Source of the DNA: Candidatus Lloydbacteria bacterium
GTDB lineage: Bacteria; Patescibacteriota; Minisyncoccia; Phycocordibacterales; UBA6899
Assembly: GCA_043719805.1 (NCBI GenBank)
Contig: JAYSTI010000001.1
Coordinates: 215,770 to 279,769, forward strand
Direction of reading: 5' to 3'
DNA length: 64,000 nucleotides
In this document: positions 1-42,037 of the stretch, piece after piece
Layout of the letters: the number at the start of each line of letters is the position of its first letter
How positions within the stretch are numbered: position 1 is the stretch's first letter
Program-made: the position numbers and the translations under genes
The notes under the pieces: model-generated
Seen by the model: the letters and a program-made list of their open reading frames with translations, nothing else
Database searches by the model: none
What the model was told of the DNA's origin: nothing

Positions 1-2649
1 CGGTCGGGATATGTGGTGCCACCTAGATTGGGGGTAAGTATTCTGTCCACAGTTCCATTCCCGTCAATATCTACGGTCAGAGGGGTTGCGCTTGTTGGAT
101 CACTCTCGGGAGGCATAGTGAATGTTGCAACCGTGCTCGGGGATACGGGGATGGAGGCGAAGGTGGTACTTGCGAGCACCTCGTCGCCGCGTCTGCGTTC
201 TACATCTAAACTAAACGTGCCTGTGGCATATCCGTGAAGGGACAGATGCTGTGCTACCCCTGCATCAGCAATAATGTATTTCACATCCCCCAGTGTGCCA
301 TAGCGAGAGCCGGGGATGTTTTGCTCCAGCATTCCGGATGTCGTTGAAATGCCGGTGTGATTTCCTAGCGCATCGTAGAGGTCGAGAGTAAGCGGGGAAT
401 GAAGGGTGTAAATGTATTCTGTACTTAATTTTTCACTGAGTGCGGCGGTAGAAGTTGCGATGTAGTTGAGCGGGGGCAACGATGCGTTGGTGAGTTTGGA
501 TTTAATTAATTCGATAAGAGACTGAACTTCCGTGATGTTTTTATGATCTCGGTCAATATTTCCCGCTGTTGCTGAGTTATATTTCCACAAATCCACCCAA
601 TATCTCTCCACATTCGGAGAACTCGTCGACATCCAAAGAGCGCTCGGCACCACAACCGTACCGTCTCCTTCGGTGGTGAAGTTCGGCCTATATTTTTTCA
701 CCTCGTAGTAAGGGCCGCATTCTTCGTGCGAGCCAATCGAATATGTATTTTGAACTATCCTGCAGTCTTGTTTCTCTTCAGTGTAATAACTCACACCAGA
801 AATAGTCGACTCACCCCAACCTGCGATTTGAATTACCCGTGTCGATGTCGCGGGTTGCCAATCGTCGATCTGTGCGTGAGTCATTAATGCTTGATCAAGG
901 AGGCCCTCTTTGAGCACATTTGGTGCATCAGGATCATTGTCGGCGGGCTCGGTGCGACCCTCGCTTCCCAAAAGAAATCCACGGAGTTCTGTCATATTGC
1001 TTACCAACAAGCCATAGCGTGCACGCTCATTTGCATACAGGGGGGAATTGGTGAATGTGACGAGCTTGCTCGTGATGGATGAGTAGCTCACTGTGTCAAA
1101 ATATTTTTGTGACGGCATAAGCGCATAACCGCTCGGCATGTTTTCTCCCAATGTGCGCGCGTGCATCTCATCAAGAAAAACCGATATACCGAGATCAGTG
1201 CCGTGCAGAAGTCCGCCAACGGCCTTTGGTGTTCCGATTTGCGGAACCGCAACGAGAATCAGATTGTCGACCAGGTCTTCCCTCCCCATTTCACGCAGTT
1301 TCAGCATGAGTCGCTTTGCGACCAAGCCCCCATTTGAATGCGCGATAATCGTCACCTTCTTGGTGCGTGACGAGCTCGCCATGCGGAGGAATTCATCGAG
1401 GATATATGTACCCGGTGCCCCACCATAAAATACCTTGTCACCATCACGGACTCCCTTCTCAAGCACATCATCGATAGAAAGCCGCCAGTCGTATGGTGTG
1501 ACGGCAAAATCCCTAATTATGCGCTCATCATCCCTCCAAGATTTCAGATCTTTGAGAAATGTTTTGTATATATTTGTTCCTGCAATCGGAAGTGGTACTT
1601 CCTCGAGCGGTCCGCGAATGATGCTTGTATAGATATTGCCAAGGATACTTGAGCCCATGGGATTCAAATAGAGTTTCTCCGCGTCGGCATCACTGTTGGC
1701 AAGCCAGAGTTGATTTTCACAGCTAAGAAAGAGGCAATTTGGATCAGTCCAATATAGTCGACTTGCTTCTAAGCCTGGCAGAAACAGCACATTCGAATTG
1801 CAATTCTCAACCCCGGCACACGGGTCACCCGGCGTTTCATCCACGGGCGGCGACAAGAGCCACGGTGAGTAGTCCACCCGCGAAGAAACCAGATTCCCCA
1901 TGGAGATGATTCCTGCATATGTTGTCGGCCCACCAAATGCCCCCCACCAGTTATTCGTCGCATCGACAACCTTCATGCTTTCATTGAATATCCCATATAC
2001 GAGATTGTCATAAATACTCGAGTGATTCACCGAGAGCGTACCGTCAAGCACATGAATACCGTATTGCACGGTGTGTGCAATCTCCGAGTTCGTGATGGTG
2101 GTCGTTCCTGCCAACTGCTGTATGCCATAGGATTCATTGTGCACAATCCTGACGTGATTGAGACTGAGTATTCCGCCATCGTTCTTCACGAGCGAGCAGT
2201 TGGTACGCCACCCATAGGAGTTAAGTGCCGCGCCACCGTAGCGGATGGTGGTGTTCTCTATGGTCGTCCGTGAGCCGGGGTTGAGCATGATGCTGCACCA
2301 GTTTCCCGATGCGGGGACGGTTGAGCTACCGTCGTTATTCGTGTCGCCGCCCACCGAGTCGTCACTAATTGAGGTGATGACTACGGGGGCGCCACTCGGT
2401 GCGCCAATGATAAGCGTGCCGCTCACGTGGAGTGGAGAACCATCACGCATGACCTTCACAATAGTTCCGGGAAGGATGGTGAGGGTTGCGGCGGGGAGGA
2501 TACTGACGCCGGTCACAATGTATGGACTGTCTGCCGCGGTCCATGTCGTATCACTCACTATCGGGCCGGACACTTCTGTGGCGGCGAGGGCGGGGGTCCA
2601 TGCGAGGAGGGAGAGGAGGGTGGAGAGCGCTACGGCGGACTTGCGCATG
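1..2649 (-). CDS. Secreted parallel beta-helix / alpha-beta-hydrolase (lipase-like) protein. The 3' end lies outside the window, which is why it is absent from the ORF track.
   Basis: Minus-strand ATG at 2649 (atgcgcaag). Signal-peptide-like N-terminus MRKSAVALSTLLSLLAWTPALAA. Beta-helix-repeat-like stretch TNSEIAHTVQYGIHVLDGTLSVNHSSIYDN. GxSxG nucleophile elbow IIAHSNGGLVAKRL. The frame stays open to position 1 (2649 nt = 883 codons). The plus-strand ORFs listed in 1-2660 are short shadow ORFs. Confidence 0.6.
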
Positions 2650-2739
2650 GTGGTGGTGTAGTTAGTGTGTATTGGTCCTTAAACTACTCCATGGGACGTG
2701 GAATGCAAGGAGGTGCGGAATTTGGCCACATTGTTTAAC

Positions 2740-2863
2740 TTTGCACCATTGTGCACATGCCCTCGACTCATCCAAGGCCACGCGTGAGCTCGGCTGGAAA
2801 CCACTGAAGGATTTTGAACAAGGACTCAAGGAAACATTCGACCACTACCGCGCCTTGAAGTAG
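2740..2863 (+). pseudogene. Orphan 3'-terminal fragment (copy A) of an rmlB-like NAD-dependent sugar dehydratase/epimerase gene
   Basis: Encodes ...ALDSSKATRELGWKPLKDFEQGLKETFDHYRALK*, a typical C-terminus of dTDP-glucose 4,6-dehydratase-like SDRs. There is no upstream gene body. About 90% nucleotide identity to copy C at 4890-5010. Confidence 0.55.
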
Positions 2864-2905
2864 TAAAACAGTGTGGCTCGACTCTTCTTGTTTTGCTACT
2901 CCGAA

Positions 2906-3973
2906 TTAGACGGTCTTCTTGGCTTCGTTTTTCGCTCGCTCAATCATGAAATGCACCACGGGGAGCATGTTGGTTTCCTGAAGCGCGATATGGGGATATT
3001 TGCGCGCAAAGACGCGGTATATCTCGTCGGCAAATGCCTGCCCCACAACCGGAACTTTAGCAAAATCAAAAACTATGACTTTAAATTTTTCCAAACCCGA
3101 AAGAATTCGACGTGCCTGAGAGCGTGAAATATGTACCCCTGCCGCCGCATAAAGGTTGACGCGGACTTCAGTCTTGTCAAAACCATAATCACTCTCATCC
3201 CCGATGTTCGTATATTTTCTAAACACATCACTTAAATGTTGCGATGCAGAAACGTTAAGTTGAAAGGTGACCCTCGTGCCCTTTTTTCGTTGTTTCACTT
3301 GCTCGATAAATACATCTTTAATTGTATTGTCCATGGTGACGCGATACCCAAAGCTCTCTAGGAGAAAGGTATCCCCTATCTTTGAAGTGAAAAATATACC
3401 TTCACCGGAATGAGACGTCGGCATTGTCGTCGTTTTCCCCTTTAAGAGATCCTGAATCGCCTCCAACTCCGAGTGGAGAGATTTCTTCTGCATGATATTT
3501 TTGAATATACCCACCCCGGAATCCTCGATGATAAACGTAAGTATTTTGCCGCGCGCCAACACGTCAACGTGTACTACTGTTGACCGTGAATGTTCGATCG
3601 CGTTGTTTAACATCTCGGAAAATGCAAATGCGAAAATACTTCTAATATTTTCCGGCATTTTTTTTAATTTGGAAAATTTACTTTCCACGTCGTTCAATAC
3701 ATTGTGTTCTTCAAGCGCGACATTTCGAAATGTTTTTGTGTATGACGCGGGAAAAATCTCCGGATGTTTTCGTGCGTATTCCGGAAGTACGTAAAATGCA
3801 CTTCTTGTAGACCCAATTTTTACAAGTCGCTGCTCACGAACAAGTTCTCCGACAAGTGCGCTTGCGTACTGTCGAGAAACACCAAAGGATGCGACGAGAT
3901 GGCTCGTGAGTATCTTCCCTACAGCTTTGCCTCTCTTCAATATTTCACCTTTCGTCAGCATGTTGCAAGACAA
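2906..3973 (-). CDS. HTH / histidine-kinase-like ATPase (HATPase_c) / C-terminal STAS-like (DUF4325-like) protein. Likely cassette cargo.
   Basis: N-terminal wHTH-like segment (GKILTSHLVASFGVSRQYASALVGELVREQRLVK). GHKL ATPase motifs (FSEMLNNAIEHS ... IIEDSGVGIF). C-terminal STAS-like segment (VIVFDFAKVPVVGQAFADEIYRVF). AT-rich. Flanked by the rmlB-like fragments. Confidence 0.55.
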   Translation of the reverse strand: MSCNMLTKGEILKRGKAVGKILTSHLVASFGVSRQYASALVGELVREQRLVKIGSTRSAFYVLPEYARKHPEIFPASYTKTFRNVALEEHNVLNDVESKFSKLKKMPENIRSIFAFAFSEMLNNAIEHSRSTVVHVDVLARGKILTFIIEDSGVGIFKNIMQKKSLHSELEAIQDLLKGKTTTMPTSHSGEGIFFTSKIGDTFLLESFGYRVTMDNTIKDVFIEQVKQRKKGTRVTFQLNVSASQHLSDVFRKYTNIGDESDYGFDKTEVRVNLYAAAGVHISRSQARRILSGLEKFKVIVFDFAKVPVVGQAFADEIYRVFARKYPHIALQETNMLPVVHFMIERAKNEAKKTV

Positions 3974-4044
3974 TTGTAAACCAAGATAGGATTAATTGTC
4001 AAGTAATTGACAACCCCCCACGGCGTCAGTATGCGCGGAAAACG

Positions 4045-4140
4045 AACTTCGGAGCAACGACATCCGCTACGCCCTCGACTCATCCAAAGCCACCCGCGAA
4101 CTCGACTGGAAGTCGCTAAAGAATTTCGAGTAAGCACTCA
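4045..4140 (+). pseudogene. Orphan rmlB-like 3' fragment, copy B, with an in-frame stop
   Basis: Encodes IRYALDSSKATRELDWKSLKNFE*ALKETFSHYDTLG. Homologous to copies A and C but more diverged and interrupted by TAA. Confidence 0.5.
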
Positions 4141-4177
4141 AAGAAACGTTCAGCCACTATGACACTCTGGGGTGCAG

Positions 4178-4435
4178 CTACCGATAAACATCCTTGCGAT
4201 GCTGAATACGAAGGATGATTATGGCATGCCTATCGAGGTCGAAGATGATACGAAAATTGCCGACACGGAGACGATACTCCCCCGCAACATGATTATGTAA
4301 TTTCTTCGCCACTACGCCAATGTCGCCCAGCGAAGCAAAATGGACGAGCTTTTTATGCAATAGCCGTCGCACTGTTATGTTTTGTTTTTCAATATCCTTC
4401 TGCGCCCCCCTTGTGAACAATACTTTATACGGCAT
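4178..4435 (-). CDS. relE: RelE/ParE-family type II toxin
   Basis: 85 aa. GEYRLRVGNFRIIFDLDRHAIIILRIQHRKDVY matches the RelE/StbE core. The stop is 3 bp from the upstream antitoxin gene. Confidence 0.8.
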   Translation of the reverse strand: MPYKVLFTRGAQKDIEKQNITVRRLLHKKLVHFASLGDIGVVAKKLHNHVAGEYRLRVGNFRIIFDLDRHAIIILRIQHRKDVYR

Positions 4436-4438
4436 ACA

Positions 4439-4693
4439 CTAGACAATGTCTGCAAAGAGGTCGTGCATGTTCACCACATCCCCTTTTGCGTACTCTTTGC
4501 GCGCAGTCCTGATGCTCGCCAAAAACACCTTGTCTCTTGCCGATAGAAGATCCTCAAACTCATCTATACCCATCAATACCGCAGTGGGAATAGCCCGCTC
4601 AGTGATTACAAGCGGCATCTTGCTTGATTTCACGTGATCCATACTTACCTTGAAATTACTTCGCAGTGCTGTGGCGTTGATTGTTTTTATCAT
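4439..4693 (-). CDS. Phd/YefM-family antitoxin
   Basis: 84 aa. Phd/YefM-like N-terminus (MIKTINATALRSNFKVSMDHVKSSKMPLVITERAIPTAVLMGIDEFEDL). Lies immediately upstream of the RelE-like gene on the same strand. Confidence 0.75.
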   Translation of the reverse strand: MIKTINATALRSNFKVSMDHVKSSKMPLVITERAIPTAVLMGIDEFEDLLSARDKVFLASIRTARKEYAKGDVVNMHDLFADIV

Positions 4694-4857
4694 ATACAGA
4701 CAGAATATACACTCCAGTTGTACATGTCAAATGTACGGTCTGCGGGGAGGCCACACAGCAAACATGCGGTGAAATTAAGATATTAATCCAAAGTGTTAGT
4801 AAATTCATGTAAATTTGTAAAGTTCATATGTGCAATTCGCAAATATCATGCCTTGAC

Positions 4858-5010
4858 GGCCTCGGCCACGATACCTTCCCGCACTACGGCAGACGGGTCC
4901 GCTACGCCCTTGATTCGCGTAAGGCCACGCGTGAGCTCTGCTGGAAACCACTGAAGGATTTTGAACAGGGGCTCAAAGAAACATTCGACCACTACCGCTC
5001 CCTCAAATAA
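4858..5010 (+). pseudogene. Orphan rmlB-like 3' fragment, copy C. Longest copy, about 50 codons.
   Basis: Encodes ...HYGRRVRYALDSRKATRELCWKPLKDFEQGLKETFDHYRSLK*. No N-terminal dehydratase body upstream (4700-4850 is non-coding and AT-rich). Confidence 0.55.
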
Positions 5011-5036
5011 CAAAACATCCGCGAGCGGATGTCTTG

Positions 5037-6292
5037 TTATTGGCACAATTTTTTATAATATTCAATTTGCTTCTCAATCAAGATGTTCTGGTCATAGTGG
5101 ACAAGCGCATGAGCCCTCGCTGCATCACTCATATCAGCCCACATTTCAGGATCTTCCATAAATTTGAGAATTGCATTCGCCATTGAATCGGGATTATTTT
5201 CTTCTCCGAGGTATCCGTTCTTTCCGTCCTCAACCTGCTCCGGAAAACCGCTGTGGCGTGTCGCCACCACGGGAAGTCCTGTCGCTAGTGCTTGTGAAAT
5301 TACTGTATTCATAATTATTATTCCATATCACCGTTCGCTGCGGTCTTCGACGTCTGCACGTACAACTGCATTTGTAAAAAATATTGAATGATATCTTCCA
5401 CCTTCATGTACCCCCTCCACTCAACTACATCCATTACGCCGAGCGAGGTCGCAAGATTGCGTAACTTTTCCTCCGCCTCCTTTGGCCCGCCCACAATGTG
5501 ACACACGAATTTTTGCTTGGCCTTCGACTTCAGAAGTGCCAGTGCGCGCAACAAATCATCAAACCCCTTTTTCTCAACAAAGCGGCCGACAGAGAGCATG
5601 TGAAAGATCCCATCTTTCGCAACCTCGCGCCTTGCAAACGGATACGAAACAACATCGATCGACACCGGCAGGGAAATAACCTTTGCGGGGTCAAACCCGA
5701 GTGCGACCACGCGTTCCTTCATGTTTTCCGACATCGTAAAGAAGAGAGATGCCTCATTGCGTAATCGATCGTAATAATGCACTCCTTTTTGCTGTATGCT
5801 TTGGCTCACGTCTGCCCCGTAGAAGGTAACGACCATACGTTGAGGTAACTTAAGAATCTCGCGAATGACAAGAAATTTATTCGCAATCGGCCCAAAATGA
5901 CAATGCACAAGATCAAATGCTTCTCCAATGAAGGGCTCAGCCCAAAAAATGGTTTTCCCCGACAGCGCATTGCGTCCATACTTGAATACGTTTGCCGCTC
6001 GTAAAAGTGCCATCGGATTCTTTGCGAGCAGATGAACCTTCTTCGGAATGATGTGTGCCATACGCGACAACAGCCCCTTTGGCATTTCGAGCACCTTAGT
6101 TCGTAATTGCATCTTGTGTGAAAAATATCGATCAGAGATATTCTCCAAACTTCCCTGCCTGAAAGTGAATATCGTCACATCAATCCCACGATCGATGAGG
6201 TCCGCAATCTGATTAATAATAAACGTCTCAGACACAACGGGAAATATCCCGACAACAAACGCAACGCGTATTTTCTTTGAATCAACTTTCAT
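5037..6292 (-). pseudogene. GT4 glycosyltransferase interrupted by a frameshift at about 5313-5318
   Basis: ORF 5318-6292 is a GT4 N-terminal domain. ORF 5037-5312 is a GT4 C-terminal domain (ALATGLPVVATRHSGFPEQVEDGKNGYL). The two are in different frames: ...ANGDME-taa taa, then ATG in the +2 frame, and reading through gives GIIIMNTVISQ. Confidence 0.65.
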
Positions 6293-9410: not shown

Positions 9411-10055
9411 TTACTTTTTGGCCACTACGTGTTGCCCGAGTGGAAATGCCGTATTTCGTTCGTGCTTGTAGCATAAAAGTCCTGCGACATTAAAAAATAC
9501 CACAATAGGAGTGAGCGCCCAGTGGCGCATGTGCAATTGTGCAAGTGCGCACATTGAGTAAAGGTATCCATTCGACGCGCGTGTCTTCACCTCGGTGAAA
9601 CCTGCCTCTTGGAACAAGTGCGCGAGGCCATAGTTCGTATAACGGAAAAAATCGTACGGGGCCTCGTGCACTGGCCACACCATCGGAGTCGTGAGCAGAA
9701 CTGTTCCTCCCACTTTTGTGATGCGATACATTTCTTTTACCACCAAATGCGGCTGCTTCGTATGCTCCAATGTTTCCGTACAAATGACCAAGTCGGCAGT
9801 ATTATCAGGCAGAGGAATTCCCTCGTTTACATCCGCAATCACAACGTCCGTAACGCCACCACGATCTTCAATGTCCACGCCAATATATCTTTCGGCAGTG
9901 ACAAACCTTTTATGAGGGGCGCGTCCGCAGCCAATGTCCACTACCGTGGAAAATTTTTTCTTCGCAGTGTGTGTAATGATAAAATTTGCCTGCAAACGGC
10001 GTACCAAAAAGCGCGTACTGGAAACTATGCGTAATAGAGAAAAAATGCGCTTCAT
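9411..10055 (-). CDS. Class I SAM-dependent methyltransferase
   Basis: VVDIGCGRAP motif I and Methyltransf_11-like core. Probable start MKRIFSLL (10055); the ORF-track start 10124 would overlap the upstream gene. Confidence 0.75.
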   Translation of the reverse strand: MKRIFSLLRIVSSTRFLVRRLQANFIITHTAKKKFSTVVDIGCGRAPHKRFVTAERYIGVDIEDRGGVTDVVIADVNEGIPLPDNTADLVICTETLEHTKQPHLVVKEMYRITKVGGTVLLTTPMVWPVHEAPYDFFRYTNYGLAHLFQEAGFTEVKTRASNGYLYSMCALAQLHMRHWALTPIVVFFNVAGLLCYKHERNTAFPLGQHVVAKK

Positions 10056-10137
10056 GTGGTTCACGTGTGGCACCAAGTGGGCCGAGAATGTAGGCAGTAT
10101 CGCAAATTTACCCCCGCACGGCAAATCTCACTCTTCT

Positions 10138-10881
10138 TTATCCCCTCTTTGCCACCACCAGATTGTTTCCCGTGCCGATGGGGAACAATATGTCGAGCCA
10201 GCCGAGGAGTTTGTAGAGTGGCATGAGATAGGGGTTGTATCGGCCACCCCACGGCTTTCCATGCAAGAGGTGTTCAATCTCCCATGCGAGGTGTCCCCAA
10301 AGTGTAAACGTCTGTCGCGACAGCAGGATCTCAAATCCGGTTTCCTTCATCAACGCGACGAGTGGTGCCATTGGGCGCATCTCTCCAATATGCTCTACGT
10401 CCGCCCAGTCGTAGAAGTCTCCGAACCAGCGTTTTGGCAACACAAAGCGCTCGGTGTCTTCACAGGGAACCGCAAGATACAAAATTCCACCGGGACGAAG
10501 CGCCTTAAAAAACTCTCTCAACACGCGCTCGTTGCCCGAGATATGCTCGAGTGTATCGATTGAAACAATCACGTCTCGAGTCGCGTCCTCGTCCATCAAA
10601 GTAAGATCTGCGGTGTGAAAGTGCATTTGGGGATCTGTGAAGGTTTTCCACTCTTCATCTGCCCTGAGGTCAACTCCTTCGATGTGCGCATTCGGGAAAA
10701 GCTTGCGCAGCATAACGGAATGCCTGCCGTTTCCACACGCGGCGTCAAGAATCGATGGCTCGACCGGCTTCACGTATCCTGGAAGATAGTGCCGACAATA
10801 AAGGGCACGTATCCAGTTCCCGGTATGCACGGGGCGAAACGGTTCATGCGTCAGTAAAAATTTCTTTATAAGTTTGAGCAT
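10138..10881 (-). CDS. Class I SAM-dependent methyltransferase
   Basis: ILDAACGNGRHSVML motif I, plus DTLEHI and LRPGG motifs. Confidence 0.75.
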   Translation of the reverse strand: MLKLIKKFLLTHEPFRPVHTGNWIRALYCRHYLPGYVKPVEPSILDAACGNGRHSVMLRKLFPNAHIEGVDLRADEEWKTFTDPQMHFHTADLTLMDEDATRDVIVSIDTLEHISGNERVLREFFKALRPGGILYLAVPCEDTERFVLPKRWFGDFYDWADVEHIGEMRPMAPLVALMKETGFEILLSRQTFTLWGHLAWEIEHLLHGKPWGGRYNPYLMPLYKLLGWLDILFPIGTGNNLVVAKRG

Positions 10882-11027: not shown

Positions 11028-12293
11028 TTGTACGCCACCCACATGAGCTTACTTCATAATCAAATGAACAAACTTATCCGCTGGGGAGAGCGGAAGGCTC
11101 AAACTGACCTGCGCTACGTGCTGCATGGCGGTTTTTGGCTTTTTGTGGGGCAGGTGGGGGGGGGTGTCACGGCAATTTTTCTTGCCATCGGATACGCGCA
11201 TTATCTCCCCAAGGAGGTCTACGGAACATACAAATACATTTTATCGGTCTTCGGAATACTCTCGCTCTTTTCTCTGACGGGGATGGACACAGCAGTGCAA
11301 CGCGGGATAGCACAGGGAAAAGATGCGATCTTTTGGAAAACATTCCGCCTGCGAGTCATGAGCTGCACGATTGCAGTGCTCGTCTGTGTGGCATTTGGCG
11401 TTTATTATTTTACAAACGGGAACAGGGAGCTTGCAACGCTGTTTTTTGTTTCTGCTCCATTCCTGCTACTCCTCGACCCGCTATCCCATTATAACTCTCT
11501 CCTAGTCGGGAGAAAGCTCTTTCGCGAGAGCTCGAAACTCAGCATCATTCTTCAAGTCGGATCGGCACTTATTATGCTCGGAGTCATTTATCTTACAAGA
11601 AACGTGCTGGGGATAATTTTGGCATATCTCTTTGCAACGCTACTCCTTCGAGGTGGTATTTTTTTGTATGTTACGAGTAGACACCCGCTCAACAAAATTG
11701 AGGACAAAGAATCTTTTCAATTCGGCAAACACCTGACGGCAATGAGCGTTCTTGCGACCATCAGTGGCCGACTGGATGCAATAGTCCTCTTTCATTTTCT
11801 TGGACCCGCAGCACTCGCAGTATATTCTTTTGCGCAAGCCGCCGTGAGCAATATTCAAAATTCGTTCAAGCTCATCACCACAACCCTAGCATTCCCCAAA
11901 ATGGCCGCCCAAGACAAGGAGGTCATAAAAAAAACATTGCTCCGCAAGGTGCGGATTGCGCATTATTTCACAGTCCCCTTGTCCATTGCCGCCATCTTCA
12001 TTATTCCATATTTTTTCCAGATATTCTTTCCAAAATATCTTGAATCAATCCCCTATGCACAAGTAATGACTGGACTACTAGCATTTTCGCCTTTACGTTT
12101 TATTTCAACAGCAATCACTGCAAAGGCCTCGGTAAAAATTTACTATACACTTGCGATCAGTAACCCGATCATTACGAGCGCTGGACTTCTCGTCTGCGTG
12201 CCACTCTGGGGAATTTGGGGTGCAATCATGGCCCTTGCAGTACAGCAATTCGTCGGAAATGTGCTCGCGCTTTATCTATTTAAGAAAATGTAA
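11028..12293 (+). CDS. wzx: Wzx/RfbX-like (MOP superfamily) oligosaccharide flippase
   Basis: About 420 aa polytopic membrane protein. N-terminal region typical of polysaccharide biosynthesis protein family flippases. About 12 predicted TM segments. Confidence 0.7.
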   Translation: MYATHMSLLHNQMNKLIRWGERKAQTDLRYVLHGGFWLFVGQVGGGVTAIFLAIGYAHYLPKEVYGTYKYILSVFGILSLFSLTGMDTAVQRGIAQGKDAIFWKTFRLRVMSCTIAVLVCVAFGVYYFTNGNRELATLFFVSAPFLLLLDPLSHYNSLLVGRKLFRESSKLSIILQVGSALIMLGVIYLTRNVLGIILAYLFATLLLRGGIFLYVTSRHPLNKIEDKESFQFGKHLTAMSVLATISGRLDAIVLFHFLGPAALAVYSFAQAAVSNIQNSFKLITTTLAFPKMAAQDKEVIKKTLLRKVRIAHYFTVPLSIAAIFIIPYFFQIFFPKYLESIPYAQVMTGLLAFSPLRFISTAITAKASVKIYYTLAISNPIITSAGLLVCVPLWGIWGAIMALAVQQFVGNVLALYLFKKM

Positions 12294-13318: not shown

Positions 13319-14194
13319 TTATCTCTTCAGGCAAGTATATAGCCAGTGAAAAAGATAACGTGGATTTTTACTTAGCAAAAATGCTTTCATGAAATATTGT
13401 TTTGCTTTTTCTGATTGTCCGGCATCACGGCACCACAGCGCAAGCCAGAAAATAAGCAGAGCGAGCTCGCGTGGATGCTGTGCATATAAAACCATATGCT
13501 TCTCGAGGAGTAGCTCTCTCCCCTTGATGCGCCGATCCAAGTTGCCTCCGATGTGCTCACCGCGCGCCGAGAGCATGTTCATACGCACAAGAGGCTTCGC
13601 GATGCCTATTCCTTTGTATTTCTGACCGATTCGCAACAAAAGATCGATCTCCTGGTGGCTCGGGAGTGACGCGTCAAACATACCGACATCCGCAAAAACT
13701 GAACGCCGAACCACGAGCGAGCTCGTGAGAAATCCTTTGAACCGGATGAGTATGATAGGTAGAAAATTGCGGACTCCGGGTACGACACGATTCACAACCT
13801 CGCCATTATCGGTAGTATTTGACACGCTCGTAACGGAGAATCCTACGTCTGGAGCAGTTTTCGTGAACTCCTCCAGTTGCAGGGCCAACTTCTCCGGCAA
13901 CCATTCGTCGTCGTCATCAAGAAACGCCACATACTTCCCCTTCGACTCACTAATGCCCACATTTCGCGTTGCTCCACCACCACGTTTTGGCGGGTCATTT
14001 TTAAGATATCGGATTCTTGGATCATGAAAACTCCCTACGACGTCCCTCGCCCCTATCTTATCTCCATCATCGACGACGACAATTTCGTAGTCGGTGAATG
14101 TCTGAGCCAATACGGATCGTAAGGCTCGCGCAACGAGCTCAGGGCGATTGAATGTCGGAACGACGACGGAAACGAGTGGTGATGATGTGGCCAT
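13319..14194 (-). CDS. GT2-family glycosyltransferase
   Basis: VSVVVPTFNRPELVARALRSVLAQTF...EIVVVDDG...VAFLDDDDEW: GT-A DXD-type motifs. Confidence 0.8.
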   Translation of the reverse strand: MATSSPLVSVVVPTFNRPELVARALRSVLAQTFTDYEIVVVDDGDKIGARDVVGSFHDPRIRYLKNDPPKRGGGATRNVGISESKGKYVAFLDDDDEWLPEKLALQLEEFTKTAPDVGFSVTSVSNTTDNGEVVNRVVPGVRNFLPIILIRFKGFLTSSLVVRRSVFADVGMFDASLPSHQEIDLLLRIGQKYKGIGIAKPLVRMNMLSARGEHIGGNLDRRIKGRELLLEKHMVLYAQHPRELALLIFWLALWCRDAGQSEKAKQYFMKAFLLSKNPRYLFHWLYTCLKR

Positions 14195-14268
14195 ATATTA
14201 GGAAAGCTTCACATTAAATTTTTTTACCCAAACTGAGAATTGTACGTTGGAAGTCTGCATTTAGTCTT
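14143..14268. repeat. Junction repeat copy 1: 5' end and leader of the GT2 gene plus a relic of the asnB 3' end
   Basis: About 94% identical to 15796-15927. Contains the GT2 start (MATSSPLVSVVVPTFNRP) on the minus strand, plus ttaggaaagcttcacattaaattttttt, which encodes ...VWVKKFNVKLS* (the asnB C-terminus) on the minus strand. A further degenerate partial copy lies at 14276-14325. Confidence 0.7.
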
Positions 14269-14401
14269 GCCCTCGAGCTCGCAGCGGTTGAATGTTGAAA
14301 TTACGACGGAAACACGGAGCATGGTGCTCTTTATAACCGACAAATAAGGTTATGGGTAGTATGGTGATAAACAAAGCACATTCTCGGATATTGTGTTCTT
14401 G

Positions 14402-15109
14402 TTAATTTTCTCCATCAAGAGCGAGTCTGAGAAAGAAAATAGCTTCGGTGCGTAATTTTGTGCGCACCCAATCCTTTTCCTTTTCTGTATGCAAAAGCTC
14501 ACCAAGACCGGAAAGCATGTCTCTATCCGCAACCAGATCCAAAGAATCGATTAATTTTTGCAGAACGACTTTGTAAGAAAGTCCGGTACGCATCTCAATT
14601 ATTCGCGCGTTAATCGGCCAGCTGTTCTTGCAAAAAAACCAAACATCAAAAATATCACGATTTGCGGTGTCTCCTCGCTCGTACATAGCCACTATTTTAT
14701 GAGCAAAGATGTCTTCCCGCGTCATCACCTTCATTGCAATTCCAAGATGCTCCTTGACTTCATATGTTGAGCCAAATTGTCGGGAACTAATGTCTATTTT
14801 TACATTCTGTGCCCAGGCCTCTTTGTTGGCATATGAAAGATTAAAAAATAAATTTTCGTACTTGTTGTCTTGATTTTTAATTTCACCGTACTGTGCCAAT
14901 ATCTGCCCAACTCGCTCAAATACGTATTCTCTTTTCTCTATATCGAGAAGGTCAAAATCGAGATCTACAGAAAAACGAGGAAGGTTGTAGAAAAGATACA
15001 CTGCCGTTCCTCCCTTAAATCCCAGAAAAGGACCGATGGTTGAATCAGAAAAAACATCCTTAAGAATCCGTATCAAAATCGCCCTATGTGTGGGAATGTG
15101 TAATGTCAT
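14402..15109 (-). CDS. abiEii: AbiEii/AbiGii-family nucleotidyltransferase toxin (type IV TA / abortive infection)
   Basis: LGFKGGTAVYLFYNLPRFSVDLDFDLL matches the GGTAL...R.S.DLDF signature of AbiEii/DUF1814 nucleotidyltransferases. AT-rich. Confidence 0.75.
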   Translation of the reverse strand: MTLHIPTHRAILIRILKDVFSDSTIGPFLGFKGGTAVYLFYNLPRFSVDLDFDLLDIEKREYVFERVGQILAQYGEIKNQDNKYENLFFNLSYANKEAWAQNVKIDISSRQFGSTYEVKEHLGIAMKVMTREDIFAHKIVAMYERGDTANRDIFDVWFFCKNSWPINARIIEMRTGLSYKVVLQKLIDSLDLVADRDMLSGLGELLHTEKEKDWVRTKLRTEAIFFLRLALDGEN

Positions 15110-15110
15110 A

Positions 15111-15737
15111 CTATTTTACTGACTTCGCTAATTTATTAACGGTTTCTTCCATGCGCTTATTTCCGTCATAAATAGGCAAAAGTGCGTAAACCTTTTCCCA
15201 ATTAATGGGGCGTAAATTATCAAAATGATAGCGTTTGTTGAGGTAGAGTACATCCAAAAATGCGCGCTCTGTGGATGCAATACTATATCCTGCTTCATTT
15301 GCCATTCCGAGATTGCTCGTGAGGATATTTTCTTTCACCCTTCGAAAAGAATATTTTTGACTACCAAGGGTTAACTCTTTTGACTGGTATGATGCAAGAA
15401 ATATTTGTGAGTAATACTGAAAAGTAACACCGGCGGAACCGAGAACCGTTTCGAAGCTAATGTACGATGGAATGAATATTTTCGTAGCAAGTTCATTCTT
15501 GTTATAATCATTATCTTTCGCGTAGAGACCCCGTCGGAGCCGCAGGAGTTTCCCCGCTTTCGCATATGAGTTTAATCGCACCCTTACTGCGTTTGTTCCC
15601 TCTTCGCCCCAAAGCAAAGCGATCTCTTTGTTTGAAAAGACTGTTTTTGGAGACCGAAGTAAAATTTCCAAATATTCACCCTTTGTAGCTTTTTTGTTCA
15701 TAATGTCGCTGGAAGTTAGCTTAAAGCTAACTTCCAA
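15111..15737 (-). CDS. abiEi: AbiEi-family antitoxin / transcriptional regulator
   Basis: N-terminal AbiEi_4-like wHTH (KGEYLEILLRSPKTVFSNKEIALLWGEEGTNAVRVRLNSYAKAGKLLRLRRGLYA). Immediately upstream of abiEii with a 1-bp gap. Confidence 0.7.
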   Translation of the reverse strand: MEVSFKLTSSDIMNKKATKGEYLEILLRSPKTVFSNKEIALLWGEEGTNAVRVRLNSYAKAGKLLRLRRGLYAKDNDYNKNELATKIFIPSYISFETVLGSAGVTFQYYSQIFLASYQSKELTLGSQKYSFRRVKENILTSNLGMANEAGYSIASTERAFLDVLYLNKRYHFDNLRPINWEKVYALLPIYDGNKRMEETVNKLAKSVK

Positions 15738-15795
15738 CTCTTATTATTGCATATTTTCAGAAACATTGCAAGTGCGGGGCAAGATTGTCCGCCCG

Positions 15796-15927
15796 GCCAT
15801 GGGGGCGATTGAATGTCGGGATGACGACGGAAACGAGTGGTGATGATGTGGCCATATATTAGGAAAGCTTCACATTAAATTTTTTTACCCAAAATGGGAA
15901 TTGTACATTGGAAGTCTGCATTTAGTC
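15796..15927. repeat. Junction repeat copy 2: duplicated GT2 5' fragment plus asnB 3' relic
   Basis: Minus strand encodes MATSSPLVSVVIPTFNRP followed by out-of-context sequence. Contains ttaggaaagcttcacattaaattttttt as in copy 1. A third, genuine copy of the asnB 3' end is at 16483-16556. Confidence 0.7.
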
Positions 15928-15982
15928 TTGCTGTAGTCACCATGTCGCGCAATGACAAAATATATTTTCTCGCACGGCATCC

Positions 15983-16246
15983 TTACTCCGAATAAAAGTA
16001 TTTGCGAAGTGTCTCATCGGACACATAGGCAAGTGCTTGCACATATATTGCACGAAGTGTCCCCGCTCGAATAGTGGTATGGTTTGGAATTATTAGGGTT
16101 TGCTTACGTCCGTCAATCGTGCGCCTCAATTTTATGTGCCCGCCACACTGGTTGAGCACAAGGAAATCGTTTGACACAAAAAATTTCACCAGATCACCGC
16201 CGGAAACATCTTTTAACTTAGGCATAATCAAGCTGTGGCACTTCAA
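15983..16246 (-). CDS. hicA: HicA-family mRNA interferase toxin
   Basis: 87 aa. MPKLKDVSGGDLVKFFVSNDFLVLNQCGGHIKLRR...TLIIPNHTTIRAGTLRAIYVQA matches the YcfA/HicA fold signature. Confidence 0.7.
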   Translation of the reverse strand: MKCHSLIMPKLKDVSGGDLVKFFVSNDFLVLNQCGGHIKLRRTIDGRKQTLIIPNHTTIRAGTLRAIYVQALAYVSDETLRKYFYSE

Positions 16247-16448
16247 TGTTCATCAGTAGTGAGGGGTGACTCGAAAGCCCAAGCTCGGCAAGATTCTCAC
16301 CTTCCACGTACAACAAGGTCGCCTCGCGAATATTTTCCTGTAAAGCATCGAGGGTATCCGCCTCGGTAACAATGGGATGACCAACGGCAGTGGCGACATA
16401 GTAGCCCTCGTGTTCTCGTGAAATAGAAAATTGAATAATATTTTTCAT
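16218..16448 (-). CDS. hicB: HicB-family antitoxin (short form)
   Basis: 76 aa. YYVATAVGHPIVTEADTLDALQENIREATLLYVEG matches the HicB/UPF0150 N-terminal domain. Overlaps hicA by 29 bp. Confidence 0.6.
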   Translation of the reverse strand: MKNIIQFSISREHEGYYVATAVGHPIVTEADTLDALQENIREATLLYVEGENLAELGLSSHPSLLMNIEVPQLDYA

Positions 16449-16490
16449 ACATGCATCATAACACGAGTTCAGCAGAAAATCAAAACTATT

Positions 16491-18350
16491 TTAGGAAAGC
16501 TTCACATTGAATTTTTTTGCCCAGACTTGGAATTGGACGATGGGGAGGAACTCCATGAGGTCTGCTTTCTCGAAGTGGACTTTTCCGTCGAGCGACCGCT
16601 TCTTGAGTGTGACAAAATCAAAAAGCTCTGCTGTGGGAGGGTAATACTCGGGGGTAAGAACGTCTCTCACCATCGCTCCAAATTCCCCCGACATCCATTC
16701 CGCTATCGGGGCGTTCCAACCGGTCTTCTTTTTATTGAGAATATAATCAGGGAGTTTTCCTTTGTATGCCTCCCGCACAAGTGATTTTTTCCCCATTCGC
16801 AATTTTTCCTGAGACGGTATGCCGTTCGCATAGCACACGAGGTCATTCGCGAGAAACGGAAACCTCCCTTCCATGCCAAAATGCATAATGACTTTATCGG
16901 TCCGCATGAATTCTTCGTTCGCAAGCCAGAACCATCGATCAAGTTCTGCAATCGCATTTACACGATCCCCGAGCGGGTCACTGAGCGGAGGAATGTCGGT
17001 ACCGAGAAAACTCCGCGTCGCATCCACCATGTCAAAACCATTCATAAAACGAAATGCGGGATTTCCGGAAGGAGGCGTAATTTTGTTCACGTATGCCCAC
17101 AACGAAATGTCTTCCCCGAGATGTAATATGTGTCCTGGTTTTACAAACCCACTCTTGAATCCCTCAACCGTGTACCGCGCGTCAAGAAGAAATTTTGGGT
17201 AGCGTTCATATTTTGCGGCTATATTTTTTGCATTCTGGTATCTCGGATAGCCCAAAAAGAGTTCGTCGCCGCCCGAACCATTGAGCACAACAGTGATGTC
17301 TTTTGATGCCATTTGTGCCAAGAGCCAATATGCGGGAACAGATGGGTTGTACCTTGGCTCTTCCATGGCCAAAATTGCCGCCTCATAAGTATCAATGAAC
17401 ATGCGCTCAGTAACAAGAAGCTCGTGATGAGCGATACGATAATCATCTGCAAGCCTCGCGGCAAGGTCTGCGTCTTCGTTGAACCTTGCATCTTTTGCCT
17501 CAAAGCGGGTTGTGTAGGTGTTCACCATCCCTCGCTCGCTCTCAGCGAGCTCATGGAGTATCACCGTTGAATCGAGTCCCCCGGAAAGAAAGAGTCCAAA
17601 CGGTCGCAGTCCCATGGTGTGCCCACGCACAGAATCACCAAATTTTTGCCGAAGCGCGGCAGGCGAGAACACTGCGTCCTTATCAATGCGGTCACTCCAC
17701 CCAAACCATTCATCACGCTCCTTGCCTGACGCAAGGTCAACCTCTTTCCATGAACCGGGTGGCAACTTTGATATGCCACTGACGAGCGTCTCCTTCGTCG
17801 GAGTATATCCGAACACAAAAAACGAGCGCGCCACTTCAATATTGAGAACCCGCGGCACGCCATAAGCAAAAAGTCCGCGCATTTCCGAAGAAAAGACAAG
17901 CGCCTCGTCATGGCGAGCCATGTAAAGTGGCTTCATCCCGGCGCGGTCGCGGGCCAAAAACACTTTTTGCTTTCGTTTGTCATAAAATGCGATGGCGAAC
18001 ATGCCGTCGAGACGAGAAAAATATGAAGGCCCATGACGCATCAGTCCTTCAAATATCACCTCCGTATCTCCGTCCGTGTGAAAAATTGCCCCCTCCCCCT
18101 CAAGTTCTTTTCTGAGTGTCTTGTAATTATAAATTTCACCGTTATAGACGAGGACATAATTCCCATCTTTTGATTCGTACGGCTGCTTGGCATTGACCGG
18201 AGTTTCTGTGATGGCAAGAAGATTCTGTCCGAATGTCACGTGCTCGTCACGAAATACCCCGACACCGTCGGGCCCGCGGTGCTTCGTCGCCTCGTTCATG
18301 CGCTCGATGCCGCCCGTCTCTTTTTTTAATATGCCGTTTATTCCACACAT
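16491..18350 (-). CDS. asnB: Asparagine synthase (glutamine-hydrolysing)-type amidotransferase, as found in glycan clusters
   Basis: Starts MCGI (Ntn class II glutamine amidotransferase nucleophile Cys2). 619 aa. AsnB synthetase-domain SGGLDS motif. Confidence 0.9.
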   Translation of the reverse strand: MCGINGILKKETGGIERMNEATKHRGPDGVGVFRDEHVTFGQNLLAITETPVNAKQPYESKDGNYVLVYNGEIYNYKTLRKELEGEGAIFHTDGDTEVIFEGLMRHGPSYFSRLDGMFAIAFYDKRKQKVFLARDRAGMKPLYMARHDEALVFSSEMRGLFAYGVPRVLNIEVARSFFVFGYTPTKETLVSGISKLPPGSWKEVDLASGKERDEWFGWSDRIDKDAVFSPAALRQKFGDSVRGHTMGLRPFGLFLSGGLDSTVILHELAESERGMVNTYTTRFEAKDARFNEDADLAARLADDYRIAHHELLVTERMFIDTYEAAILAMEEPRYNPSVPAYWLLAQMASKDITVVLNGSGGDELFLGYPRYQNAKNIAAKYERYPKFLLDARYTVEGFKSGFVKPGHILHLGEDISLWAYVNKITPPSGNPAFRFMNGFDMVDATRSFLGTDIPPLSDPLGDRVNAIAELDRWFWLANEEFMRTDKVIMHFGMEGRFPFLANDLVCYANGIPSQEKLRMGKKSLVREAYKGKLPDYILNKKKTGWNAPIAEWMSGEFGAMVRDVLTPEYYPPTAELFDFVTLKKRSLDGKVHFEKADLMEFLPIVQFQVWAKKFNVKLS

Positions 18351-28943: not shown

Positions 28944-28997
28944 GCATAGGTCAAGCAACACTTGTGGGTCGCGGTGCTCATCGGTATAGTTATGTGC

Positions 28998-30167
28998 ATG
29001 AATCTCCATGAGTACGAAGGTAAGGAGCTCCTCAGGCGGGGTGGCATTGAGATTCCGCGTGGGAAACTTTTTGACGGGTCAGATGCCCCCCCAGAATTAG
29101 CATATCCCGTCTTCGTGAAGGCTCAGATACTTGCGGGCAGGCGAATGAGCTCAGGTGGAATCATGATTGCACGAGACTATGAGGAATTGGCTCTTGCAAC
29201 AACCAAGCTGCTCGGAAGTACGCTGGCGGACAGGATAGTCAAGGATGTGCTCGTTGAAGAGGCGGTTGCCTTTACCGGTCAGGAACATTTTGTCTCTTTT
29301 TCATGTGACACAAAGACTAGGACGTTCGTGTGCACAACCTCCGATGAGGGCGGTACGGGAATAGAGGAGCGGCCGGTGCAGAGGTTTGTCATTGATTACG
29401 AAAATCCTCAATTCGACAACAGCGCAGTTCCGCGCGCGGTTCTCGAAAAACTCTTTGATATATTTTGTGTGAATGATTGCATTCTCCTTGAGGTCAACCC
29501 ACTCGTTCACTGCCTTGATACCGACACCTGGGTAGCGCTTGATGCAAAGATCGTCATCGACGATTTCGCGTTGCCACGACACCCGGAATTCACTTTCTCT
29601 GAGCGCACGAACACTCCAGGAAACATCAGAACATCACGGGAAATAGCCGCTCAAAAAATTGACCATGGAGATCATCGCGGTAGTGCGGGCTCATCGTATG
29701 TCGACCTCGACGGGAACATCGGGATGCTCCCCTCCGGTGGAGGGGCATCACTCATTGCGATGGATGCACTCTTTCAAAATGGCGGGAGGCCGGCAAACTA
29801 TACTGAATATTCGGGAAACCCCACAAAAGAGAAAGTGGAAAAACTTGTTTCCATCGTTATATCAAAACCCGGACTTCACGCGCTGTGGGTGGTTGGAGCT
29901 GTCGCAAATTTCACCGACATTTATGAAACTCTGAGTGGCCTCGTCCTTGGACTACGTGCCGCACGAAATAATTTATCACTTCCCATTGACTACCCCATCA
30001 TCATCCGCCGAGGGGGGCCACGTGATGAGGAGGCATACGCGATGCTTCGTGAGGTAACGGATTTCGACCTACATCTTTTTGGAGAAGAAACAAGCATCGA
30101 ACAGTCGGCGAAGGAAGTGATGAAATTAGCCCAAGCGTATGCAAATAAACAAACTCATACCAAATAA
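28998..30167 (+). CDS. Succinyl-CoA synthetase beta (SucC)-like ATP-grasp subunit. Candidate citryl-CoA synthetase / ATP-citrate lyase-like.
   Basis: Starts MNLHEYEGKELLRRGGIEIPRG (compare SucC MNLHEYQAKQLF). ATP-grasp plus ligase-CoA domain layout. Confidence 0.75.
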   Translation: MNLHEYEGKELLRRGGIEIPRGKLFDGSDAPPELAYPVFVKAQILAGRRMSSGGIMIARDYEELALATTKLLGSTLADRIVKDVLVEEAVAFTGQEHFVSFSCDTKTRTFVCTTSDEGGTGIEERPVQRFVIDYENPQFDNSAVPRAVLEKLFDIFCVNDCILLEVNPLVHCLDTDTWVALDAKIVIDDFALPRHPEFTFSERTNTPGNIRTSREIAAQKIDHGDHRGSAGSSYVDLDGNIGMLPSGGGASLIAMDALFQNGGRPANYTEYSGNPTKEKVEKLVSIVISKPGLHALWVVGAVANFTDIYETLSGLVLGLRAARNNLSLPIDYPIIIRRGGPRDEEAYAMLREVTDFDLHLFGEETSIEQSAKEVMKLAQAYANKQTHTK

Positions 30168-31056: not shown

Positions 31057-31060
31057 TTAT

Positions 31061-41212: not shown

Positions 41213-41229
41213 AATTATAGAATGGCCGC

Positions 41230-41598: not shown

Positions 41599-41618
41599 CA
41601 TCGGTGGGAGAAATAGTT

Positions 41619-41745
41619 AGTTTCGGAAGCACCACGCGATTGCGGTTCTCGGCATTCCACACGTTGTCGTTCGCGAAGGGGTTCACGTTCACCCTCAATC
41701 TCTCATCGGAGTTCCGGTTCACGTTGGCGACGAAATTTTCTGTGC
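41619..41745 (-). repeat. DGR template repeat (TR)
   Basis: 127 bp, 111 of 127 identical to 42063-42189. On the minus (sense) strand it reads ...ENFVANVNRNSDERLRVNVNPFANDNVWNAENRNRVVLPKL, rich in AAC (Asn) codons. All 16 differences from the VR fall at TR adenines. Confidence 0.85.
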
Positions 41746-42037
41746 GATACACCATCTGTGCCACCACCCATTGAGTACTCTTTGGGCTGTATCGTATCTG
41801 AGACTTCAAAGTCCTCCAGTGTATCGCACCAACTGACTATATTTTTGTTTCTTGAAAATAGATCCACCCTTTTGCGAGACGTATCCGGCAAAATACCCAA
41901 ATATATTTTCACACAATCATCGTGCCCGAGCCATGACCGGAGCACTGCGGATATATTGCCCTATAATGATACACGAGTATACAAAAAACCCTCAGACCTT
42001 GCCAATGCAAGTGTCCAAGGGTCGAAGAGTCAAAGGG

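Follow-up and report, generated by a model that had tools for sequence, protein, structure and literature searches.

Repeated rmlB 3' ends flanking small gene cassettes at a putative insertion hotspot beside the surface-glycan genes of a Paceibacteria-like (CPR) bacterium

Organization of the locus

The window analysed here, a 64-kb stretch of a metagenome-assembled genome, carries three direct repeats, designated A, B and C (Table 1), which lie in the same sense and encode the C-terminus of dTDP-glucose 4,6-dehydratase (rmlB). The initial annotation had proposed three rmlB-type C-terminal fragments at these sites, and both blastn and the NCBIfam profile TIGR01181 confirm them, the translations of A (E = 6e-6) and C (E = 4e-8) both matching positions 275-312 of the 321-position profile. 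When the region was compared with the window by blastn, A (2774-2870) and C (4921-5017) were 89.7% identical over 97 nt (E = 5e-32), in agreement with the earlier estimate of about 90%, and B was the more degraded copy, as had been stated, with an in-frame TAA and identities of 79.8% to A (A 2759-2847, B 4071-4159; E = 8e-17) and 73.2% to C (E = 2.6e-10). The repeat search returned a single family with these three members, and no further matches to the repeats were detected elsewhere in the 64-kb window. Alignment of the fragments with each other and with intact rmlB, a check that the initial annotation had suggested, gave significant similarity and established them as rmlB ends; all copies align with the last 105-140 nt of the intact rmlB genes of relatives. 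Only the last 35-50 residues are represented in A, B and C, which score at most 32.7 bits against a curated cut-off of 365 bits for full-length RmlB, and by this measure they are gene fragments and not genes.

Table 1. Features of the rmlB-end array and its flanks (window coordinates)
Feature	Position	Strand	Remarks
Intact rmlB stop codon	~-1537
Two genes for small membrane proteins of 127 and 84 aa	left of LCAT-like gene, up to intact rmlB stop
First cassette: secreted LCAT-like lipase/beta-helix protein, 1040 aa	1..2648, partly outside window	-	Pfam LCAT, Beta_helix
Copy A, orphan rmlB 3' end	2757-2863	+	last ~105 nt and TAG stop; reading frame open
Second cassette: HTH (DIP2311-like), HATPase_c (GHKL ATPase) and DUF4325/STAS-like protein, 351 aa from ATG	2906-3961	-	Pfam
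Promoter-like site TTGACA-18-TACAAT and 18-nt palindrome	3973..4013	-	promoter 11/12 matches; upstream of HTH-ATPase gene
Copy B, orphan rmlB 3' end	~4040/4054 to 4187	+	in-frame TAA at 4131-4133
Third cassette: ParE/RelE-fold toxin, 85 aa	4178-4435	-	PF05016, 31.1 bits (cut-off 23)
Third cassette: Phd/YefM antitoxin, 84 aa	4439-4693	-	PF02604, 41.8 bits (cut-off 29.8)
Promoter-like site, ParE-Phd cassette	4730-4702
Copy C, orphan rmlB 3' end	4855-5010	+	occupies place of intact rmlB end opposite GT1 gene
Terminator-like hairpin	5015..5032	+	between copy C and convergent GT1 gene
Right flank: GT1 glycosyltransferase as two ORFs (5318-6292 and 5037-5312)	5037..6292	-	frameshift near 5312-5320

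The sequence before copy A, upstream of position 2757, is homologous neither to rmlB nor to copy C, and a candidate for longer decayed homology in this direction was discarded as not significant. Copy C is distinguished by 27 nt at 4873-4899, where one codon is replaced by nine (TFPHYGRRV). Among the 25 matches of a representative search there was no intact RmlB with this insertion; fragment C (52 aa), used as the query for homologs, matched nothing but itself, and exact look-up of the 60-aa ORF returned none. Past the stop codon nothing convincing is common to the copies.

As had been reported, A, B and C each lack an rmlB body directly upstream. A fourth copy, Z, lies outside the window, 1.5 kb to its left and 4.3 kb upstream of A, and was reached through the Logan contig L001, which is identical to window positions 1-4086, extends 1631 nt further left and ends in Z. 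Translated, Z is identical to the C-terminal 30 residues of P0123, an intact RmlB of 318 aa encoded outside the window, on a contig whose length (284,620 nt) is that recorded for the proteins of the window itself. On this evidence Z is the end of an intact rmlB that heads the array, and the dTDP-sugar pathway keeps its dehydratase. The proposal that the gene body was later lost is therefore wrong, and the suggested functional loss of the 4,6-dehydratase finds no support. From left to right the array reads rmlB, two membrane genes with the LCAT-like gene, A, the HTH-ATPase gene, B, the ParE-Phd pair, C, the glycan genes and a flippase.

Cassette genes and flanks

Pfam searches uphold the earlier assignment of an HTH/HATPase/STAS gene between A and B and of a RelE/Phd-YefM pair (PF05016, PF02604) between B and C. 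In the latter the antitoxin gene is directly upstream of the toxin gene at a distance of 3 nt, and the pair is predicted to be a type II toxin-antitoxin system of the ParE/RelE with Phd/YefM kind. Upstream of the HTH-ATPase gene, the stretch 3973..4013 contains, in addition to the promoter-like site, an 18-nt palindrome (TTGTCAAGTAATTGACAA). Collections of plasmids, phages and viruses contained nothing matching the HTH-ATPase gene, fragment alignment against viral contigs gave no match, and exact look-up of the 355-aa version of the protein starting at TTG was also negative. The LCAT-like gene and the 127-aa gene occur as a pair in two further loci (L161/L162) in an unrelated context, and when genome contigs were scanned with the LCAT-like protein, no relative exceeded 36% identity. 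On the right flank, the two GT1 ORFs match the N-terminal and C-terminal halves of one Pfam domain, and the split is also present in the independent Logan contig L002.

A parallel array and empty sites in relatives

Comparison with related genomes, which the initial annotation had recommended, revealed empty sites and cassettes that partly vary. One relative (L084/L158) has a parallel array in the order rmlA-rmlB, a SoFic-like Fic gene, a copy of the rmlB end, an orthologous HTH-ATPase gene, a second copy and a flippase. Window positions 2757-4017 match L084 8673-9954 at 74% identity, the homology running unbroken through the left-hand copy (A in the window, c2 in L084) into the HTH-ATPase gene, including the promoter and palindrome stretch, and ending ~37-50 nt short of the copy that follows, from which a gene end with its cargo is taken to be the unit. 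In five related lineages (L155, L156/157, L159/160, L165-170 and L171) the site is empty, and in L159 an intact rmlB directly faces GT1 and DegT genes matching those that follow C in the window. Arrays were seen in only two of about seven related lineages. Conserved rmlA-rmlB genes stand at one border and a flippase at the other, and the block between differs in every relative.

Several apparent second copies in other metagenome loci were discarded or lapsed: those in L104 and L116 lie in full-length ORFs (351 and 313 aa) of separate SDR-type genes, the search with fragment C did not recover those in L130, L143 and L147, and an apparent 120-nt duplication in L158 arose where an N gap links a pair of variant contigs.

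Such a gap, followed by a variant copy, would suit an artefact in which strain variants of the rmlB end were stitched into a false array during metagenome assembly, and short-read contigs do break inside B and inside Z. This explanation is nevertheless highly improbable, as Logan contigs from different runs agree at 100% identity from Z to B (L001), from Z to ~3275 (L003) and from B to 14 kb (L002), these contigs break only at shared 30-mers, and for the relative an array of this kind is present in assemblies from both JGI and ENA.

Divergence among the copies

In 19 pairwise comparisons among the copies, dN/dS was 0-0.18, and all pairs except A-C differed by 0.43-0.88 synonymous substitutions per site. 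The differences are mostly synonymous, and judged by this pattern the copies come from different rmlB alleles, whose ends diverged in working genes and were displaced in turn; they are not decaying duplicates. Core divergence between the alleles amounts to 16-27%; A and C are 95% identical in the 75-nt core. In B, a 55-nt tract (4057-4111) with diverged sequence on both sides appears to be identical to intact rmlB, as deduced from the limits of k=31 Logan contigs (L001 ends at 4086, and L001 and L002 start at the 30-mer 4082-4111). Counted from the stop codon, the 5' limits fall close together, between -137 and -140, in four of the five orphan copies (c2, C, c3 and probably B).

Copy c3 of L084 has the TFPHYGRRV insertion in common with C, and this shared and unique feature suggests that the two descend from a common orphan ancestor. 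They differ by 9 synonymous and 12 non-synonymous changes, which was read as a mostly synonymous difference; since it is still of this kind despite the presumed orphan ancestor, it is a poor fit to neutral decay.

The same data bear on the proposal that the gene end or junction was first duplicated locally in tandem, creating a harmless gap into which foreign DNA inserted later, the copies then being decayed paralogous duplicates. The similarity of the A and C cores would suit such an origin, as would the second site described below, where the joint resembles a novel joint and the copies are nearly identical. Most rmlB pairs, however, are near synonymous saturation with their amino acids kept, unlike decaying duplicates, and in two genomes the HTH-ATPase gene is accompanied by the left-hand copy, so that this explanation is considered quite unlikely.

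A second site at the asnB|GT2 junction

Elsewhere in the window, HicAB and AbiE cassettes lie between 129-nt repeats of the uninterrupted asnB|GT2 junction, and these repeats are 96% identical. The target is unrelated to the rmlB end and the architecture is the same, with the 5' end of the downstream gene also duplicated. The joint connects GT2 position +66 to asnB position -74, like the novel joint of a tandem duplication.

Searches for a recombinase and attachment sites

Recombinases were sought in the 64 kb of the window and in 20 kb from the relative. Pfam scans detected no recombinase domain in the scanned cassette genes of both window sites and of the relative, or in roughly 50 larger ORFs of the window, and tblastn with XerD and lambda Int, a search of low sensitivity, found no match with E < 0.2 in either the window or L084. 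Of the att-like core repeats that the initial annotation had suggested looking for there was no sign, no common core standing out beyond ordinary coding conservation. Integron attC sites were likewise rejected, since folding of A, B and C on either strand is not stronger than that of shuffled sequences (z-scores +0.42 to +1.23).

The initial annotation had likened the array to integrative elements of the kind that insert at gene 3' ends. Part of this stands, in that same-sense target-end repeats flank the inserts and the gene is regenerated; what was not found by Pfam in the scanned cassette genes is the recombinase that such an element should carry, and with a second site of the same architecture at another target, classical integrative elements are not shown to be the cause. 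In a broader version of classical site-specific integration, the rmlB 3' end that replaces the old one would be part of an attP, the tyrosine or serine recombinase would be supplied by another part of the genome or by a helper since lost, insertion would occur serially at an attB within rmlB, and the orphan ends would be attR scars. Same-sense repeats, a regenerated head gene and empty sites in relatives are the textbook layout of 3'-end islands and tandem accretion, the clustered 5' limits of c2, C, c3 and probably B are in keeping with it, the strong divergence of the alleles is no obstacle to a site-specific enzyme, and accretion with integrase-less remnants is comparable in tycheposons (10.1101/2020.12.28.424599) and tandem SGI1 (PMC2297512). 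The empty recombinase screens, the unrelated target at asnB|GT2 with its duplicated downstream gene start, the missing core, and tracts of identity between copies that vary in length and position tell against it, and it is regarded as possible but rather unlikely. If the array does depend on a recombinase acting in trans, it would be a decayed island array of the ordinary sort, found in an unusual host.

Proposed mechanism of accretion

That cassettes inserted serially at the rmlB 3' end and left the displaced ends behind, as originally proposed, is supported by the intact rmlB at the head of the array, the array of the relative, the five empty sites and the synonymous divergence of the copies. 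The putative hotspot marks the transition from the conserved rmlA-rmlB genes to the variable surface-glycan block of this Paceibacteria-like (CPR) bacterium. We favour, at a little under even confidence, an insertion hotspot driven by homology after DNA uptake. Each unit would comprise an rmlB 3' end of ~105-140 nt reaching to the stop codon together with one to three genes, which would point back towards rmlB and have their own promoter. Each arrival would provide a new working end for rmlB and push the previous end downstream as an orphan, and C would be the oldest end, still at the former meeting point of rmlB and GT1. Movement probably requires no integrase encoded by the units themselves: DNA of a related strain, once taken up, would recombine through its rmlB homology, a cassette between two rmlB ends would bring its own homology arms, and recombination among the copies may reshuffle or delete units. 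The cargo (toxin-antitoxin pairs, the HTH-ATPase gene and, in the relative, Fic) is likely to be selfish or defensive and probably helps to keep the array in place.

Natural competence with homologous integration has been demonstrated in Saccharibacteria, another CPR lineage (PMC10633639). The homology route is further favoured by the lack of a recombinase among the scanned cassette genes and of XerD- or lambda-Int-like genes in the window or L084, by the 55-nt tract of B that seems identical to the intact gene within diverged flanks, by the high identity of the A and C cores and by the second site with its different target. Against it, a core divergence of 16-27% is large for RecA-type exchange over arms of 105-140 nt, the clustering of the 5' limits is also expected from a fixed attachment site, the origin of the first unit is left unexplained, the C/c3 pattern fits neutral decay poorly, and few of the related lineages have arrays.

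Relationship to known systems and implications

The array is a variant of island accretion at gene 3' ends. As in SGI1 at trmE (PMC2297512, PMC8409611) and the dusA islands (PMC4482086), same-sense target-end repeats flank the insert, the gene is intact at one end with older insertions pushed outward, relatives have empty sites, and the cargo includes toxin-antitoxin and defence genes. Unlike these islands, the array has no integrase in its scanned cassette genes, its units are only 0.7-4.3 kb, its repeats measure 105-140 nt and come from clearly different alleles, and the same arrangement recurs within this gene cluster at another target, unrelated to the first. The tycheposon islands of Prochlorococcus (10.1101/2020.12.28.424599) also belong to streamlined genomes without the usual mobile elements, and in them new arrivals push older ones inwards and partial target copies are scattered through the island; they target tRNA genes, however, and carry tyrosine recombinases and replication modules, whereas here the target is the end of a protein-coding gene and no recombinase was seen, so that the array does not qualify as a tycheposon. 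Integron arrays and CALINs resemble it in their cassettes of one to three genes, repeats of ~100-150 nt and richness in toxin-antitoxin pairs, but the present repeats are copies of coding sequence without hairpin potential (z +0.4 to +1.2), the cassettes have their own promoter-like sites, and neither IntI nor attI was seen.

Variable surface-polysaccharide loci such as those for O-antigen and capsule are bounded by conserved rml genes. The present locus is alike in having rmlA-rmlB at one border, a flippase at the other and a variable block between; ordinary flank-to-flank replacement, however, leaves no repeated gene ends, and here the border has collected non-glycan cassettes. A speculative and on balance unlikely extension is that CPR bacteria hold integrase-free mobile cassettes, small units that have a copy of a conserved host gene end or junction on either side, carry their own homology arms and replacement end, spread by uptake and general recombination and form arrays at several surface-glycan junctions, of which the rmlB end and asnB|GT2 would be two examples.

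Arrays of this type disrupt short-read assemblies, and gene-end fragments in metagenome-assembled genomes should not be taken as pathway loss. If the favoured reading of homology-driven insertion is true, tiny genomes without the usual mobile elements would still gain and stack toxin-antitoxin and defence genes, and conserved gene ends would act as landing pads while the genes themselves stay intact.

Repeated rmlB Ends and the Intact Gene

Three segments of the window (A, B, and C), read in the initial annotation as copies of the 3′ end of an rmlB-like dehydratase gene, are genuine direct repeats. By blastn of the region against the 64-kb window, A (2774–2870) and C (4921–5017) are 89.7% identical over 97 nt (E = 5e-32), in keeping with the ∼90% first noted, A and B 79.8% over 89 nt (E = 8e-17), and B and C 73.2% (E = 2.6e-10); repeat finding and MAFFT agree, and no further matches occur elsewhere within the 64-kb window. 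The translations of C and A match positions 275–312 of 321 in TIGR01181 (dTDP-glucose 4,6-dehydratase; E = 4e-8 and 6e-6, respectively), the C-terminal part, as had been proposed. Limits of the copies were set by local alignment against relatives' intact rmlB genes. Measured back from the last base of the stop codon, the 5′ limits lie at −140 in c2 (a copy in the relative L084), ∼−137 in C, and −105 to −110 in A; that of B is probably ∼−137 and that of c3, another L084 copy, is similar. On the 3′ side every copy ends within a few bases of the stop codon.

Exact look-up of the HTH-ATPase protein yielded Logan contig L001, which is 100% identical to window 1–4086 and extends 1631 nt further left, its far end being a fourth copy, Z (translation SKATRELDWKPLKDFEQGLKETFEYYRTLE, then a stop). 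The 318-aa RmlB P0123, recovered by a search with a relative's intact RmlB, has C-terminal 30 residues identical to this translation (30/30), and its record carries a 284,620-nt NCBI contig, the size also given for the 60-aa ORF over C and for the LCAT-like protein. Judged from this match and the shared contig size, Z forms the 3′ end of an intact rmlB whose stop codon lies ∼1.5 kb to the left of the window, which refutes the earlier view that the gene body had been lost.

The order from this gene rightward is rmlB (Z), membrane proteins of 84 and 127 aa, a 1040-aa LCAT-like/beta-helix protein, A, the HTH-ATPase gene, B, the ParE–Phd pair, C, GT1, DegT, FdtA-methyltransferase, methyltransferases, and a flippase; the HTH/HATPase gene between A and B and the RelE/Phd-YefM pair between B and C are as initially named. 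The LCAT-like gene and its 127-aa neighbor are also paired in L161/162, in an unrelated neighborhood. The GT1 glycosyltransferase gene beside C, intact in relatives (408–419 aa), is split by a frameshift at 5312–5320 into two ORFs (324 and 91 aa); since the same split is present in the independent Logan contig L002, it is likely to be genuine or programmed.

Features of the two arrays, the L084 locus, and the retroelement (window coordinates unless marked L084)
Feature	Coordinates	Strand	Remark
Copy A	2757–2863		local alignment to relatives' rmlB
HTH (DIP2311-like) + HATPase_c + DUF4325 protein	2906–3961	minus	between A and B
Copy B	∼4040/4054 to 4187		local alignment to relatives' rmlB; in-frame TAA at 4131–4133
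ParE/RelE-fold toxin	4178–4435	minus	between B and C
Phd/YefM antitoxin	4439–4693	minus	between B and C
Promoter-like sites of cassettes	4002–3973 and 4730–4702	minus
Copy C	4855–5010		local alignment to relatives' rmlB
Terminator hairpin			downstream of C
Flippase	11028–12293		right end of array order
Intact asnB-like gene end	16543–16491	minus
HicB/HicA pair	16448–15983	minus
Orphan junction copy, 129 nt	15931–15803	minus	asnB last 74 nt + 3 nt + GT2 first 52 nt
AbiEi-like gene + AbiEii	15701–14402	minus
Further GT2 5′ piece	14313–14274	minus
Second junction copy, 96% identical	14270–14142	minus	runs on into intact GT2 gene
rmlA	L084 5780–6532
Intact rmlB	L084 6535–7494
Fic protein	L084 7536–8588	minus	PADLOC SoFic model, E = 1.9e-42
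Copy c2	L084 8643–8764		in-frame stop
HTH-ATPase ortholog	L084 8840–9898	minus
Copy c3	L084 ∼10004–10150		then flippase
Reverse transcriptase	40214–41257	minus	diversity-generating retroelement
Small four-helix-type accessory ORF	41230–41598		diversity-generating retroelement
Template repeat	41619–41745		diversity-generating retroelement
Variable repeat	42063–42189		3′ end of 221-aa gene

Array and Empty Sites in Relatives

Scanning of JGI metagenomes by fragment alignment gave 71 loci, nearly all of them ordinary full-length genes, and one with an array, the 158.7-kb contig L084, whose RmlB shares 82% identity with P0123. The independent ENA assembly L158 has the same array; at its positions 4516–4640, directly after c3, comes an N gap and then a version of the c3 tail and downstream sequence with 86% identity, a hint that another strain variant of the locus was present in the sample. 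Window 2757–4017 and L084 8673–9954 form a single alignment (74% identity) that spans the rmlB copy, the HTH-ATPase gene, and the promoter region and stops 37–50 nt before the next copy, so the mobile unit consists of an rmlB end plus cargo. In five other lineages (L155, L156/157, L159/160, L165–170, and L171) convergent glycan genes come immediately after rmlA-rmlB and extra rmlB-end copies are absent; among these, L155 has the closest RmlB (87% identical). The gene that rmlB faces in L159 is GT1, with DegT next, as to the right of C; C therefore sits at the original gene-end site. The intact rmlB at the head, the L084 array with its partly different cassettes, and the empty sites together support the serial insertion at an rmlB-like 3′ end first suggested.

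Second Array and Other Features of the Window

A second array of the same build lies in an unrelated place (14134–16543, minus strand), where the orphan 129-nt copy represents the uninterrupted asnB/GT2 junction.

Elsewhere, a diversity-generating retroelement occupies 40214–42703, and all 16 of the 16 mismatches between its template and variable repeats fall at template adenines in the minus-strand reading. A 208-aa gene (52355–52981, minus) with two HxT motifs, 2H-phosphoesterase-like, has intergenic 75-nt direct repeats on both sides (52198–52272 and 53011–53085, 77% identical), and two adjacent NUDIX hydrolase paralogs (56290–56844 and 56946–57509) are 74% identical over 158 nt. At 28962–31726, amid the glycan-synthesis cluster, there are ORFs carrying ATP-citrate-lyase/succinyl-CoA-ligase-like and citrate-synthase C-terminal domains, near split transketolase genes (33187–34946).

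Allele History and Signs of Recombination between Copies

Over the 25 codons common to all copies (75 nt, a small sample), dN/dS was 0 to 0.18 in all 19 pairwise comparisons, with 0.43 to 0.88 synonymous differences per site except for the A–C pair (0.20). Z differs from A by 9 synonymous and 3 non-synonymous changes and from C by 12 and 4, against an expectation of ∼4 non-synonymous per synonymous change for duplicates decaying in place. This trend points to the copies deriving from distinct rmlB alleles whose ends diverged while still functional, and fits units that each brought their own gene end. At the protein level the orphans of each genome are closest to its own clade, so the donors were close relatives.

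Logan assembly uses k = 31. L001 stops at window 4086, and the 30-mer at 4082–4111 is the start of both L001 and L002, which then part, one entering B and the other Z; an exact 55-nt tract (4057–4111) is therefore common to B and the intact gene. With diverged sequence on either side, this tract bears the mark of a recent conversion or crossover. A and C agree at 71 of the 75 core positions, whereas the first 17 nt of A are those of Z and B. Unique to C (4873–4899) and c3 (L084 ∼10010–10036) is an in-frame 27-nt stretch in place of a single codon between GHD and RYALDS, encoding TFPHYGRRV in C and TCPCYGRRV in c3; it may be the scar of an older event or a feature of the allele, and none of the 25 matches of a full HMMER scan was an intact RmlB carrying it.

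Possible Mode of Insertion

No recombinase domain was detected in the cassette genes scanned against Pfam, and no integrase among the ∼50 window proteins scanned likewise, which include glycosyltransferases, methyltransferases, sugar enzymes, and one reverse transcriptase; a crude tblastn screen found no XerD or lambda Int relatives in the window or L084. Integron attC sites were rejected as an identity for the repeats because these show no single-strand folding. A recombinase acting in trans is a serious rival, rather unlikely on balance, and two targets that are unrelated in sequence speak against a single dedicated attachment site. A homology-driven route is tentatively favored: DNA taken up from relatives would recombine via rmlB homology, a cassette between two gene-end copies would bring both homology arms along, and recombination between copies could then reshuffle the array. 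One CPR lineage is competent and integrates DNA by homology, as demonstrated with arms of ∼1 kb (PMC10633639). Three points weaken the homology-driven route: the alleles diverge by 16–27% over short arms, the 5′ limits of the copies cluster, and the first event is not accounted for.

The known patterns that come closest are the accretion of islands at the 3′ ends of genes (PMC2297512, PMC8409611, PMC4482086) and, in Prochlorococcus, tycheposon-shaped islands (10.1101/2020.12.28.424599). The rmlB array differs from both in that no integrase was found, its units are very small, its long repeats come from different alleles, and a second target exists; a full-text literature search turned up no paper in which rmlB is named as an attachment site.

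With an intact rmlB at the head of the array, the FdtA/DegT pathway keeps its dehydratase, and the loss initially suspected for it is not borne out.
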